64,000 nt of DNA from a virus, in the IMG/VR virus record IMGVR_UViG_2582581241_000004. The stretch is one strand, 5' to 3'. The notes below the pieces were generated by a model, which did not search any database, had not been told where the DNA came from, and saw only the letters and a list, made by a program, of their open reading frames with translations. This document shows, piece after piece, positions 25,944-30,767 of this stretch (the first letter of the stretch is position 1; each line of letters begins with the position of its first letter). Position numbers and translations under genes: made by a program.

Positions 25944-25963
25944 GGGCCCGCTTCGGCGGGTCC
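25944..25963. terminator. GC hairpin between convergent genes
   Basis: GGGCCCGC-TTCG-GCGGGTCC. Confidence 0.55.
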
Positions 25964-25968
25964 AGCCT

Positions 25969-26520
25969 TTATTGGCCGCCCTTGCCGACGTAGACGGGAT
26001 TGCCCACGCTGGTCGCCCTTTTAGCCTCCAGAGCTCTCAGGCTGTTCGCCAACGCCCTCGGCGTATTCGTAAGCCCGAGCACCTCCGCCGTTTTCAGGTC
26101 GACTCCGAAAATGTCATGGAGCTTTTCCGTAGCCCACGTCGCGCAATTGTGCGTCAATCGCCATCCGGTGAATTTTCCGAGCGCCATGACGGCTCGCGAT
26201 TGCTGGCCTTTGTAAAGGCCGTAGTATCTGGATGCGTTCGCGACGTAATGCAGCCTGCGCTCCAGATCGAATTCGACCTCGAATTTTTCGGCGAATTTAT
26301 CGGTGATGCCCGAATTGTGCAGGATATTTCCGGGATCCCTCACGACATGTCGAGGAAATCCGTTTGTTTGGACCTGCCACAGTCCGATCGTGTTGGACCG
26401 TCCGTTTGTATAGTGCATGCTCAGCCATGCATGCCCCCACGTGAGATCGACGGCGCCGGCGGGACGATAGTCGCCTTCCTTCGCATTGTGCCCGGCATGG
26501 ACACCGATTACGCTAAGCAT
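25969..26520 (-). CDS. papain-like (permuted NlpC/P60-type) cysteine hydrolase, accessory gene
   Basis: GHAWLS (His) precedes HNCATW (Cys) and TPRAL; lower GC than flanks. Confidence 0.6.
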   Translation of the reverse strand: MLSVIGVHAGHNAKEGDYRPAGAVDLTWGHAWLSMHYTNGRSNTIGLWQVQTNGFPRHVVRDPGNILHNSGITDKFAEKFEVEFDLERRLHYVANASRYYGLYKGQQSRAVMALGKFTGWRLTHNCATWATEKLHDIFGVDLKTAEVLGLTNTPRALANSLRALEAKRATSVGNPVYVGKGGQ

Positions 26521-26650: not shown

Positions 26651-26935
26651 TCAGTCCCTCTTCGTCTTCGGGCGCCCGAGACGTCTCTTCGTTGGGTCCG
26701 CCGGCGGCAGGTCGCCGGGATCGACGACGGGCGCCGCGCTGCGGATGTAGGCGATTTCGAGTCCGACTGCGTGGGCGAGCTTTTCACTGAGCGGGACGGC
26801 GCCGTCGCAGACTTGCGTGATCATGCCGGGCGTGACGCCGATGGCCTTGGCGAATTTCGAGCGGCCCATTCGGTCGGCGAAGTCCGTGAACAGGGCGACG
26901 GCCTGTTCGCGTGTGAGGATTTCGGGTTTCTTCAT
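26651..26935 (-). CDS. XRE-family HTH regulator (Aca-like)
   Basis: GRSKFAKAIGVTPGMITQVCDG..PLSEKLA; directly downstream of the AcrIF11-like gene. Confidence 0.75.
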   Translation of the reverse strand: MKKPEILTREQAVALFTDFADRMGRSKFAKAIGVTPGMITQVCDGAVPLSEKLAHAVGLEIAYIRSAAPVVDPGDLPPADPTKRRLGRPKTKRD

Positions 26936-26976
26936 TCGGGGTTCCTTTGAGTTTTTCTCTGTGAGTCGGCCTGCGG

Positions 26977-27561
26977 TCACACGGAGGCCTTTTCGAATTC
27001 CTCGAGCGGCATGATCTTTGTGCCGATGCCGCCGATGACGAGTGTGGAAATCCCGTTCTCGTCGTAGCAATCCACGGCTCTGAAGCCTGCGGCGCGGGCG
27101 AGTAATCCGCGAATGCGCTGGATTTCGAATCCGAGACTTCCGGCGTCGAAGGCTTGCGCGCCGACGAGGATTTCCTCGAATATTCCGCCGTATTCGCAGT
27201 CGTCGCCGCCGAAATAAATTTCGATCGAGTTGGCGTCGTCGGTTTCGAGAGCCCAGCGGCGCAGCATATTCAGCACTTCGGCCCGCTCGTTCTCGTCGAT
27301 GTCGTATTCGTCGAGCGCGTCGAGATCGATTTCGCCGGCGATGACCTCGTCGATCCGCTCGCGAGACAGACGCTCCGTAATATCTCCGTGCCGGCAGATC
27401 TCGCTGTCGTCGAGCGAGACGATGTGCAGATGCTCGCCGTAGCCGTGATTGACGCATCCGGGGTTGTAGTCGAGCGTGAAGATTCCACCGAAGATGCCCG
27501 TCTCGGTGATCCCGTCGATGTGGGCTTTGCTCGAACCGTGGATCAGATGCATCGTCGCCAT
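26977..27561 (-). CDS. acrIF11: AcrIF11-like ADP-ribosyltransferase
   Basis: LIHGS..I..I...GIFGGIF, NHG..EHLH and GFEIQRIRGLLA...GF.AV...DENG align with recalled AcrIF11 motifs LFHGS, GVFGGLF, GWELQRLRGVLA and EDEHG. Confidence 0.75.
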   Translation of the reverse strand: MATMHLIHGSSKAHIDGITETGIFGGIFTLDYNPGCVNHGYGEHLHIVSLDDSEICRHGDITERLSRERIDEVIAGEIDLDALDEYDIDENERAEVLNMLRRWALETDDANSIEIYFGGDDCEYGGIFEEILVGAQAFDAGSLGFEIQRIRGLLARAAGFRAVDCYDENGISTLVIGGIGTKIMPLEEFEKASV

Positions 27562-27597
27562 GTTCCGTCTCCCTGCACCGCGCCTTCCATTGATACA

Positions 27598-27645
27598 TTT
27601 ATAGCAATCGCTAAAAACAAAGTCAACATCTTTTTTTAGCGATTG
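27598..27645 (-). promoter_or_regulatory. consensus sigma70 promoter overlapped by a 13-bp inverted-repeat operator
   Basis: TTGACT (27626-27621)-N17-TATAAA (27603-27598); CAATCGCTAAAAA (27605-17) / TTTTTAGCGATTG (27633-45). Confidence 0.85.
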
Positions 27646-27676
27646 ATAAAAATAATTTCGAGGCCTCGAAAAATCC

Positions 27677-27741: not shown

Positions 27742-28188
27742 ATGACGGAAATCATCAATCGCCCCACGAATCCCCAGGGAGACAAGGATCTCGCGAACGG
27801 CTGGTATTGGCTGGCGATCGGCATCGGCAACAAGGAGAAGCGGCCCGTCGAATTGAAGGACGGCGTCTGGCAGTGGGGATATGCCGGCGGCGGATTTCCG
27901 AAGACCTGTGTTTTCGTGCTGTCGAGAGTCGAAGACCCCGAGGATGCCGTCGAGGCCGGCTACTATTGGGGGCGGTTCCGTTCGGACGAGCCGTCCGACC
28001 TCGCATGGATTTTCGATGTCTCCGAAAGCGGACAAGTTCGGTGGAATGACAACATCTACAATCTCAGCGAAATCGAGATCGTCTGCCGCGTGCCGACGCC
28101 TGGCGATCTGGCGGAATTGGAAAGGCTGGCGAAGGCGCGCGAGCCGGGTTCGACGGACTTGCCATTGTCCGTCGAACCCGGACTCTAA
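27742..28188 (+). CDS. hypothetical protein with duplicated G[WY]YW motif
   Basis: LANGWYWL and VEAGYYWG; GGGAG RBS. Confidence 0.65.
   Translation: MTEIINRPTNPQGDKDLANGWYWLAIGIGNKEKRPVELKDGVWQWGYAGGGFPKTCVFVLSRVEDPEDAVEAGYYWGRFRSDEPSDLAWIFDVSESGQVRWNDNIYNLSEIEIVCRVPTPGDLAELERLAKAREPGSTDLPLSVEPGL
28144..28181. repeat. perfect 15-bp inverted repeat
   Basis: CCGGGTTCGACGGAC-N8-GTCCGTCGAACCCGG. Confidence 0.85.
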
Positions 28189-28232: not shown

Positions 28233-29438
28233 ATGATCCTCCACAGGGCGAACATCTACCGTCTCTATCCGACCGACGAGCAGGCCCAGCGCCTGACGGA
28301 GTGGGTCGGATCCTGCCGATTCATGTACAACGTCGCGCTGGAGCAAAGGCGCGACTGGTGGAGGCCGGGGCGCCGTTTCAATTTCGCCACGCAGTGCCGG
28401 GAAGTCACGGCGGTGCGTGAAGAAGTGGATTGGATCAAGGACGTTCCGGTTCATGCCCTGCAACAAGCGATGAGGGATCTCGATCGCGCCTTCGTCAATT
28501 TCTGGGAAGGGCGGGCCGAATATCCGAAGCCGCGGCGGAAATTCGAGAACGACAGCATGCGCTTTCCTGATCCGAGCGCCTTCGGATTTCGCCGCATATC
28601 GAAGCATTGGGGCGAAGTGAAACTCCCCAAGCTCGGATGGGTGAAGCTGCGTTGGGACAAGGCGATTCCTGGAACGGTGAAGAACATCACCGTCTCGTTG
28701 AAGACCGGGATTTGGACCGTCGCGGCGCAATACGAAACGGAAATCGCGGATCCGCAGCCTTCGGAATTGCCGCCGGTCGGCATCGACCGCGGAGTCGCCG
28801 TCTTCGCTGCCATGTCGGACGGGACGAAGGTCGAGCCGGGAAACTTCGGCAAGAAGGCGCGGAAGAAGCTGTGCAAGGCGCAGCGGAATCTGTCGCGGAA
28901 GAAGAAAGGATCAAACAATTGGAAAAAGCAGAAGGCGCGGGTCGGGAAGATACAGGGTAAAATAGCCCGTCAGCGCAAGGACTATCTGCATAAACTCTCC
29001 ACCGACATTGCCAAGAGCCACGGCGTCGTCGCGATGGAGAATCTGAAGGTCAGGAACATGACGGCTTCCGCCGCCGGCACCGTCGAAGAGCCGGGGAAGA
29101 ACGTCCGTCAGAAGGCGGGATTGAACCGCTCCATTCTCGATCAGGGATGGGGGATGTTCCGCACGATGCTGAACTACAAGCTGGCGGAGCGCGGGGGAAG
29201 GCTGGTGGAGGTGAATCCCGCCTTCACGAGTCAGACATGCTCCGAGTGCGGCGTCGTCGACGCGAGGAGCCGCGCCAGTCAGGCGCGTTTCGTCTGCGTC
29301 GCTTGCGGACACGAAGAAAACGCCGACGTGAATGCGGCGAAGAATATCCTAAGCCGGGCGGGCTGCTCGGTTCTGCCTGTGGAGGGACAGCGTGGTAGAC
29401 GCCCCGATGAAGCAGGAACCATCCGGAGGGCTGCGTGA
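28233..29438 (+). CDS. tnpB: TnpB RNA-guided endonuclease (IS200/IS605 family)
   Basis: N-terminal YRLYPTDEQ; RuvC GIDRG, AMENL, NADVNAAKNI; zinc finger CSECG..CVACG. Confidence 0.95.
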   Translation: MILHRANIYRLYPTDEQAQRLTEWVGSCRFMYNVALEQRRDWWRPGRRFNFATQCREVTAVREEVDWIKDVPVHALQQAMRDLDRAFVNFWEGRAEYPKPRRKFENDSMRFPDPSAFGFRRISKHWGEVKLPKLGWVKLRWDKAIPGTVKNITVSLKTGIWTVAAQYETEIADPQPSELPPVGIDRGVAVFAAMSDGTKVEPGNFGKKARKKLCKAQRNLSRKKKGSNNWKKQKARVGKIQGKIARQRKDYLHKLSTDIAKSHGVVAMENLKVRNMTASAAGTVEEPGKNVRQKAGLNRSILDQGWGMFRTMLNYKLAERGGRLVEVNPAFTSQTCSECGVVDARSRASQARFVCVACGHEENADVNAAKNILSRAGCSVLPVEGQRGRRPDEAGTIRRAA

Positions 29439-29686: not shown

Positions 29687-30018
29687 TGCGCCTCACGTCG
29701 GACGAACTGATCGACGCGATTGCCCGCGAGATCGAGCCTCTCGCGTTTTCCTTCAGGGAGCCCGACGACTCGGAGCGCCACCGGATGTTGTCGGCGCGGA
29801 TGACGGCGAAACAAATACTCGGCATCGTTGTCGCGCAGGATGTCGAACCCGGCCTGTATTGGGCGACGCACAAGGGCGAAGACGAGGCCGCAGTGGTCAA
29901 CGTGGACGACAGGGGGCGCGTCAATACGATCGGGCGAACCTTCTCCGGATACGTATTCAACTACGATGTCGGAGAAAGGATCGTGATGCCGGCGATGGAA
30001 GGGAAGAAGGCGACATGA
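29686..30018 (+). CDS. hypothetical protein (GLYW motif)
   Basis: TGATG coupling; VEPGLYWA resembles the repeats in 27742-28188. Confidence 0.6.
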   Translation: MRLTSDELIDAIAREIEPLAFSFREPDDSERHRMLSARMTAKQILGIVVAQDVEPGLYWATHKGEDEAAVVNVDDRGRVNTIGRTFSGYVFNYDVGERIVMPAMEGKKAT

Positions 30019-30767
30019 GCGACAAATCCGATATCCGTCTTCAGGTCGTCTATCGGCCAATCGACGAACTGATCCCCTATTCGCGGAACAGCCGCACGCA
30101 TTCGCCGGCGCAGCTTCGAAAGCTCGCCGAGGCGATCAAGCGCTATGGTTTTACAAATCCGGTGCTTCTCGACGGCAAAAACGGAATCCTGGCAGGGCAT
30201 GGTAGAACGGCGGCTGCAAAAGAAGCTGGGCTGAATAAAGTTCCGACGATCGACCTCGGCCACCTCTCAAATGAAGAACAGCGCGCATACATCATCGCGG
30301 ACAATAAGCTTTCCGACGAGTCTTCATGGAACGACGACATGCTCGCCCTCGAACTCTCGGAACTCAAATCCCTCGACTTCGACCTGTCGCTCACCGGCTT
30401 CGACGACCAGGAGATCAAGAGCCTCCTCGAACCCGAGCCGCCGAAGGCCGAGGAGCCGAAGCCGACTCCGGGCGCGCCTGTGTCCCAGCCCGGCGACGTG
30501 TGGGTGATGGGGTCGCATCGCCTCGAGGTCGGCGAGTCCGATCACGCCGTCGCCGACGCGATCTGCGGCCTCTGGCATTCGCATCTGGATTCGCCGGCGG
30601 TGCTGGAGGCGACGGGACAGACGTTCGCCGAGGTCATGACGGAGCGGAATCCATCGGCGCCGGTCGTCCCGAAGCTGACGCGGGCCAAGGCGCGGGATGC
30701 CTTGGCAAAGGCTGGGAAGCCGCGGGCGAAGAAGGACGACGCGCCGAAGGGAGGAACCTACCATTGA
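30015..30767 (+). CDS. ParB/Srx-domain protein with truncated methyltransferase linker
   Basis: IDELIPYSRNSRTH, GFTNPVLLD, ILAGHGR, YIIADNKL; then PGDVWVMGSHRL..G but no MTase motifs. Confidence 0.8.
   Translation: MSDKSDIRLQVVYRPIDELIPYSRNSRTHSPAQLRKLAEAIKRYGFTNPVLLDGKNGILAGHGRTAAAKEAGLNKVPTIDLGHLSNEEQRAYIIADNKLSDESSWNDDMLALELSELKSLDFDLSLTGFDDQEIKSLLEPEPPKAEEPKPTPGAPVSQPGDVWVMGSHRLEVGESDHAVADAICGLWHSHLDSPAVLEATGQTFAEVMTERNPSAPVVPKLTRAKARDALAKAGKPRAKKDDAPKGGTYH

Follow-up and report, generated by a model that had tools for sequence, protein, structure and literature searches.

AcrIF11 is an anti-CRISPR (Acr) enzyme which ADP-ribosylates residue N250 of Cas8f, inhibiting type I-F CRISPR interference, and to our knowledge Cas8f is the only substrate known for its family. 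Among the anti-CRISPR-associated (Aca) proteins, Aca1 and Aca2 are autorepressors, and aca4 to aca7 were reportedly found 3' of acrIF11 orthologues by Marino et al. in 2018. In the current study, a 64,000-nucleotide (nt) stretch of viral DNA (IMG/VR record IMGVR_UViG_2582581241_000004; termed the window throughout) was analysed, with emphasis on a minus-strand gene, 26977..27561, which encodes a protein of 194 amino acids (aa; P0001) and is referred to here as the acr gene. This protein, although divergent, truly belongs to the AcrIF11 family of ADP-ribosyltransferases (ARTs), and its gene is followed on the minus strand by an aca-like gene (26651..26935) encoding a 94-aa helix-turn-helix (HTH) protein of the Cro/XRE type (P0002).

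Structures are available for AcrIF11Pae1 (PDB 6KYF; Niu et al. 2020, as summarised in PMC8120803) and AcrIF11Pae2 (PDB 8DWQ; Chen et al., mBio 2025, PMC12421852). According to the summary in PMC8120803, the key residues of AcrIF11Pae1 are H7, F26, H37 and D115, with activity being abolished by the D115A substitution, while the conserved D115/E116 pair of this protein corresponds to D146/E147 of AcrIF11Pae2 (10.1101/2024.08.26.609590). The helical region is the most variable part of the family and has been proposed as the determinant of Cascade-orthologue specificity, facing the lysines of Cas7f (Chen et al., 10.1101/2024.08.26.609590). Concerning the genetic context, acr loci display a pattern of constant layout, interchangeable regulators and optional extra small genes, and aca5 has been found with acrIF11 (PMC7648647).

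A preliminary description of this DNA had assigned P0001 to the AcrIF11 family and proposed alignment to AcrIF11 as a check, and this assignment is now borne out by profile, sequence, fold and catalytic residues alike. The NCBIfam model NF052490 (“AcrIF11 family anti-CRISPR ADP-ribosyltransferase”, an equivalog) was matched at 68.5 bits (E 1.1e-18) against a curated cut-off of 50 bits, over profile positions 1-142 of 142, and a six-frame search of the genome with the same model returned 68.2 bits for the acr gene. Pfam PF26151 (AcrIF11_ADP_ribosyl) is on record for P0001 and its relatives; an older local copy of Pfam-A gave no match for the enzyme because PF26151 is newer than that copy. When the PDB was searched with phmmer, AcrIF11Pae1 (E 1.7e-8) and AcrIF11Pae2 (E 0.0075) were the sole matches. 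An AlphaFold2 model of the enzyme based on 57 homologues (predicted local distance difference test (pLDDT) 89.8; predicted template modelling score (pTM) 0.87) led to the same two structures, with 6KYF (E 1.7e-8, probability 1.00, template modelling score 0.65 by target) and 8DWQ (E 7.9e-4) being the sole Foldseek matches at E ≤ 0.001; the third match (9k3a_B, E 9e-3) is to a pre-ejectosome chain of cyanophage A4.

The AcrIF11 motifs which had been listed in the preliminary description are present in P0001 as HGS (residues 8-10), GIFGGIF (22-28), QRIRGLLA (148-155) and DENG (167-170). In a family alignment of 57 sequences G26, F28, D167 and E168 are invariant, and H8, F24, G42, Q148, R151, G152 and A155 are each retained in at least 90% of sequences; since the motifs fall on these invariant or near-invariant columns, we conclude that they are real. 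Residues H7, F26, H37 and D115/E116 of AcrIF11Pae1 align with H8, F28, H39 and D167/E168 of P0001 (phmmer alignment to 6KYF and 8DWQ). A separate observation concerns P0004 (L006:6001-6549), the next-nearest member of the subclade, in which R replaces the near-invariant His of the HGS motif (LYRGNN) while the D-E loop is kept, a substitution that may reflect an altered NAD-binding motif.

The acidic insertion mentioned in the preliminary description was also found. It comprises approximately 27 aa (about residues 85-112) in the variable helical domain and, together with further extra residues in that domain, is shared with P0003 and P0004 only and is specific to this subclade. The insertion and the extra residues appear as additional helices in the AlphaFold2 model, and the helical region as a whole (residues 52-139) bears a net charge of -20. 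The isolation of the protein in sequence space is considerable: among 1.84 billion cluster representatives just seven proteins were found at E ≤ 1e-10, of which the closest from another cluster shares 37% identity, and in a collection of 5.8 billion proteins P0003 (65% identity) was the sole close relative. A profile search of genome contigs with the subclade alignment found no relatives, and a scan of IMG/VR found just two distant relatives of the enzyme. The G+C content of the acr gene is 0.59, that of the phage 0.62. Beyond stand-alone enzymes, an AcrIF11-like domain also lies within very large proteins of 1226-3661 aa (P0019, P0027, P0076 and P0092), which, together with the likeness to 9k3a_B, suggests that some phages inject an AcrIF11-like enzyme together with their DNA.

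The window represents a contractile-tailed prophage in which genes for the large terminase, portal, tail sheath, tape measure and baseplate are present, and which sits in a 2.9-Mb contig of a 5.13-Mb host genome rated as 100% complete; a megablast comparison of 16 kb with the phage collection found no related phages. A minus-strand islet (27653-25969) interrupts a mostly plus-strand block of phage genes and is composed, in order, of the promoter region, the 194-aa gene, the 94-aa gene, a 183-aa gene and a GC-rich hairpin. The 194-, 94- and 183-aa products have likewise been called on identical contigs in the public collection. The acr gene is preceded by a Shine-Dalgarno sequence, GGAGA (27568..27572, minus strand), 6 nt before its ATG at 27561, and the aca-like gene begins 41 nt past the stop codon of the acr gene with a Shine-Dalgarno sequence of its own (AGGAA, 6 nt before the ATG). 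Two other open reading frames (ORFs) were considered and set aside. A 237-aa ORF from GTG 27690 would include the promoter and the repeat described below, and the family profile begins at residue 4 of the 194-aa form; a 315-aa ORF (26651..27598) is not a gene, but covers the acr gene in an alternative, arginine-rich frame and is joined in frame to the HTH gene.

Reading of the sequence 5' of the enzyme gene identified a sigma70-like promoter (27598..27626, minus strand) which consists of a -35 element, TTGACT (27626..27621), a spacer of 17 nt and an extended -10 element, TG-n-TATAAA (27606..27598), with the TG one base before the -10, and which matches the consensus at 10 of 12 positions. The claim that this promoter is overlapped by a 13-base pair (bp) inverted repeat is correct, and a repeat search revealed that the arms of this putative operator (27597..27653) extend to 21 nt. 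The arms, at 27597-27617 and 27633-27653, are 90% complementary and lie 15 nt apart, and contain perfect 13-nt cores (27605-27617 and 27633-27645), a 13-mer which occurs at just these two places in the window; the perfect core was found nowhere else in the 5.1-Mb genome. The -35 element falls within the 15-nt spacer between the arms, and the -10 element inside the promoter-proximal arm. Adjoining the distal arm, in the divergent intergenic region before a 148-aa plus-strand gene (27742-28188), is a perfect 16-bp palindrome, TTTCGAGGCCTCGAAA (27656-27671), at which a second regulator may bind.

As had been described, the HTH gene directly follows the acr gene in the same orientation, and its product is predicted to adopt an XRE/Cro-type fold. 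At the sequence level P0002 displays a weak match to Cro (Pfam PF09048, E 0.007), and lambda Cro was matched in the PDB at E 0.19 with a convincing helix-turn-helix alignment. In a single-sequence model, residues 9-56 form four helices (pLDDT about 90), while the tail (residues 60-94) is disordered, basic and proline-rich. Foldseek matched this model exclusively to HTH proteins of the XRE/Cro type, namely HigA, ClgR and HipB and the repressors of 434 and P22 (c2), at probability 0.9-0.99 and E 0.04-0.7, the best structural neighbours being HigA antitoxins, for which a faint NCBIfam match was also obtained (E 0.22). The tail (window 26651-26755) contains a basic R-L-G-R-P-K-T-K-R stretch that is AT-hook-like, and A5/T5 tracts in the operator arms are a possible contact for such a motif.

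The arrangement of promoter with inverted repeat, enzyme and HTH had been likened to that of acr-aca operons, and this likeness is strengthened by the recurrence of the layout at related loci. In the P0003 locus, an 86-aa gene in which no HTH is evident separates the acr homologue from the gene for a 120-aa protein, an HTH protein by motif reading. In the P0004 loci, represented by five metagenomic contigs, a 69-aa gene with an HTH by motif reading overlaps the stop codon of the enzyme gene, and an 18-bp palindrome lies between TTGACA and the start codon. In the IMG/VR locus L025, a 77-aa gene and then a ParB-like/methyltransferase pair lie 3' of the gene for a 163-aa homologue. The partner genes of the related loci are not detectably homologous to one another by BLASTP. 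These three related loci, with an enzyme followed by small genes, fit the modularity of acr-aca loci. On the contig of the closest relative, the 86-aa gene (L005:745-1005), placed after the AcrIF11 homologue and before the HTH gene, occupies the position where additional acr genes are usually stacked.

Based on these findings, it is likely that the locus encodes a functional AcrIF11-type counter-defence enzyme under autoregulation by the HTH protein, where activity, repression and target are what we infer. The enzyme would most likely use NAD+ to mono-ADP-ribosylate a single host defence protein, inactivating its target catalytically. The beta-sheet core (H8, F28, H39 and D167-E168) is predicted to bind NAD+ and to catalyse the transfer, while the enlarged acidic helical domain (about residues 52-139), with its subclade-specific insertion, would select the substrate. 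The inverted repeat, which flanks the -35 element and covers the -10 element of the operon's strong promoter, is most likely the binding site of the HTH protein, which would shut the operon down after an early burst in the manner of Aca proteins.

A number of observations weigh against this interpretation. The promoter is not called by a consensus scan because the -10 element does not possess the conserved final T. The centres of the half-site cores are separated by 28 bp, a wide spacing for one HTH dimer; each arm holds a small TAGC-N4-GCTA quasi-palindrome, and two dimers, one per arm, would be as likely as a single dimer spanning both arms. No homologue of P0002 was found in the 5.8-billion-protein collection, in which its sole match was itself, and BLASTP of P0002 against the HTH proteins of the related loci gave no significant similarity, leaving its position and the repeat as the only grounds for assigning it an Aca role. 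Members of the AcrIF11 family were found in 0 of 60 relatives of the host and in 0 of 400 genomes of its class, and the acr gene might be a recent import carried as luggage, although it matches the phage in G+C content. With regard to CRISPR pressure, the 74 spacers of the host gave at most chance-level partial matches to its own genome outside the array, with no self-targeting, and 564 spacers from 15 related type I-C arrays gave no match to the window or the surrounding 160 kb, so that the spacers of the host and its relatives give no direct indication of the phage being under CRISPR pressure.

The proposal in the preliminary description that the HTH protein may serve as a new Aca marker is not supported: P0002 was neither assigned to a named Aca family nor seen to recur beside different acr genes, and since it is without detectable homologues in the large protein collection it is unusable for guilt-by-association searches. 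An alignment of P0002 with P0118 made by eye is not claimed as homology, since BLASTP between the HTH proteins of related loci found no similarity.

The identity of the target is best approached through the CRISPR-Cas content of the host, which possesses one complete type I-C locus (Cas3c, Cas5c, Cas8c, Cas7c, Cas4 and Cas1c). This locus (G000:C9:1805271-1818600; L002, L003) contains the single Cas1 of the genome and an array of 75 repeats of 32 nt with 74 spacers of 33-39 nt, and lies about 0.8 Mb from the prophage. The type I-F signatures Csy1 and Csy3 were not found in the complete host genome, and among 150 relatives (genus, family and order) Csy1 was found in none and Cas8c in 22, while 3 of 400 genomes of the class carry Csy1. 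Because the host and its relatives are without type I-F, the substrate in this host is probably not Cas8f; foremost among the candidates is the type I-C Cascade (Cas8c). A change of target is plausible, on circumstantial grounds, in a lineage where type I-F was not detected and for a protein whose putative specificity domain has been remodelled; the earlier suggestion of a target other than type I-F likewise receives circumstantial support from a host with type I-C only.

Among the specific proposals, the one that we advance tentatively is that the acidic helical domain steers the chemistry to the type I-C Cascade of the host, either to Cas8c or to a neighbouring subunit, which would render the protein an enzymatic AcrIC. 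A complete type I-C system with 74 spacers is the sole CRISPR-Cas system of the host, type I-C is the type found among its relatives, and the insertion lies within the region proposed for target specificity (10.1101/2024.08.26.609590). This support is circumstantial, however, as no self-targeting or phage-matching spacers were found, and no AcrIF11 homologue has been reported to inhibit type I-C in the literature searched. In evolutionary terms, it is conceivable, if somewhat speculative, that the lineage of P0001, P0003 and P0004 gained the acidic helical module and switched from Cas8f to an alphaproteobacterial type I-C Cascade. If true, type I-C CRISPR-Cas would have its first enzymatic, substoichiometric inhibitor, and the lineage would represent a case of natural target switching via a specificity-domain swap in an Acr enzyme.

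It appears rather unlikely that the canonical function has been kept, with Cas8f of the type I-F Cascade as substrate and the gene being carried for other hosts or persisting as an inert remnant in a type I-C host. All experimentally characterised members of the family act on type I-F (10.1101/2024.08.26.609590; PMC8120803), and among 13 species genomes with canonical AcrIF11 genes (chosen as carriers; mostly Enterobacterales) Csy1 was found in eight. In the five canonical carriers without Csy1, Cas8c was present in none and Cse1 was likewise not found; carriage without a resident type I-F system therefore occurs. Such retention is nevertheless difficult to reconcile with the scarcity of Csy1, which was found in neither the host nor its 150 relatives and only rarely in the class, and with the remodelling of the proposed specificity domain. 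Furthermore, identity of at most 37% outside its own cluster and a phage-like composition argue for long residence in the lineage.

It is distinctly unlikely that the ART modifies another host protein, belonging either to another defence system or to a core process, as with T4 Alt, ModA and ModB, and is not an anti-CRISPR. The T4 ARTs are a precedent (PMC8120803), and the large proteins containing the domain, together with the pre-ejectosome likeness, suggest a wider use of the fold; against this, P0001 passes an equivalog-level model built on AcrIF11 and its gene lies in an acr-aca layout typical of anti-CRISPR loci. A type II toxin-antitoxin system, in which an ADP-ribosylating toxin is neutralised by the disordered C-terminal tail of a HigA-like HTH antitoxin, is highly improbable: P0002 does have HigA proteins as its best structural neighbours, a faint NCBIfam HigA match and a disordered tail of 35 residues, and ART toxins with Xre-type antitoxins exist (ParT; PMC8120803), but the proteins of the operon match no toxin family and no PADLOC model, AcrIF11 is reported to be highly specific and non-toxic (10.1101/2024.08.26.609590), and the main argument against it is the conserved layout with interchangeable partners, since the 3' partner is not conserved among relatives and an extra gene intervenes in one locus whereas toxin-antitoxin pairing is tight and cognate.

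Returning to the counter-defence enzyme under HTH control, the annotation itself is an ordinary result, as P0001, which NCBIfam and Pfam models already recognise and current annotation pipelines would label, adds one more divergent protein to an established family, in an operon design that is likewise known. Its value lies in providing a test case, namely a well-conserved AcrIF11-type enzyme with remodelling of its proposed specificity domain, in a lineage where type I-C is resident and type I-F was not found. The modified substrate would show whether this enzyme family can be retargeted to other Cascade types or defences, and would thereby bear both on the breadth of enzymatic anti-CRISPRs and on how they could serve to switch genome-editing tools of type I-C.

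Concerning the remainder of the islet, the 183-aa gene (25969..26520, minus strand) lies on the same strand 130 nt 3' of the HTH gene, and no terminator-like structure was found in that 130-nt gap; the gene is possibly co-transcribed with the acr-HTH unit, its membership being uncertain. Its product gave no Pfam, PHROG or PADLOC match, while Atlas feature and structure neighbours (IcsB_M, the IcsB middle domain; TseH; Lnb_N; Peptidase_C92) mark it as a candidate permuted papain-like (Cys/His) enzyme. About 20 homologues share 38-58% identity with it, and in the two homologue contexts checked they are stand-alone genes on cellular contigs with unrelated surroundings. It may constitute a second enzymatic accessory gene of the islet. 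Directly after its stop codon is the GC-rich hairpin (25944..25963), which marks the convergent end of the three-gene islet, is common to the convergent plus-strand gene and was called as a terminator-like site on the plus strand.

On the other side of the acr gene, at a distance of 670 nt, is an intact-looking TnpB (28233-29438, plus strand; phrog_506, E 3e-110) with HTH_OrfB_IS605, OrfB_IS605 and Cas12f1-like TNB domains; no tnpA was seen among its scanned neighbours. Beyond TnpB, about 2.4 kb from the acr gene, lies a ParB-like gene (30010-30767). In L025 (1886-3473) the acr homologue and its small gene immediately precede genes for a ParB-like nuclease and a DNA methyltransferase, and the proximity of acr and ParB-like genes may represent a recurring anti-defence neighbourhood.

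In comparison with known systems, the locus shares with ART toxin-antitoxin modules (ParT-ParS, and RES-Xre such as MbcT-MbcA) the combination of an NAD-using enzyme and an Xre-type HTH protein, but differs from them in having no sequence match to toxin families and a gene order and partner that are not conserved, and MbcT gave an insignificant fold match to the enzyme model (E 0.8). The acrIF11-aca operons are closer, since in these, too, a strong promoter with inverted repeats precedes an enzyme gene and then a small HTH gene; here, however, the HTH protein is an orphan that is weakly Cro-like, and a third gene, the papain-like enzyme candidate, is present on the same strand. Although sequence similarity to AcrIF11Pae2 is weak and its helical domain, a variable region, differs, the two proteins share the beta-sheet NAD-binding core, and D146/E147 correspond to D167/E168. 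AcrIF11Pae1 differs in length (132 aa against 194 aa here), in being only about 23% identical over the structural alignment, in having a helical domain that is not enlarged by the subclade-specific acidic insertion and in that the present host is without Cas8f; nonetheless, P0001 and AcrIF11Pae1 are both acidic, small and borne on mobile elements, and have in common the profile, the sequence family, the fold, the H-F-H-D residues and the D-E loop.

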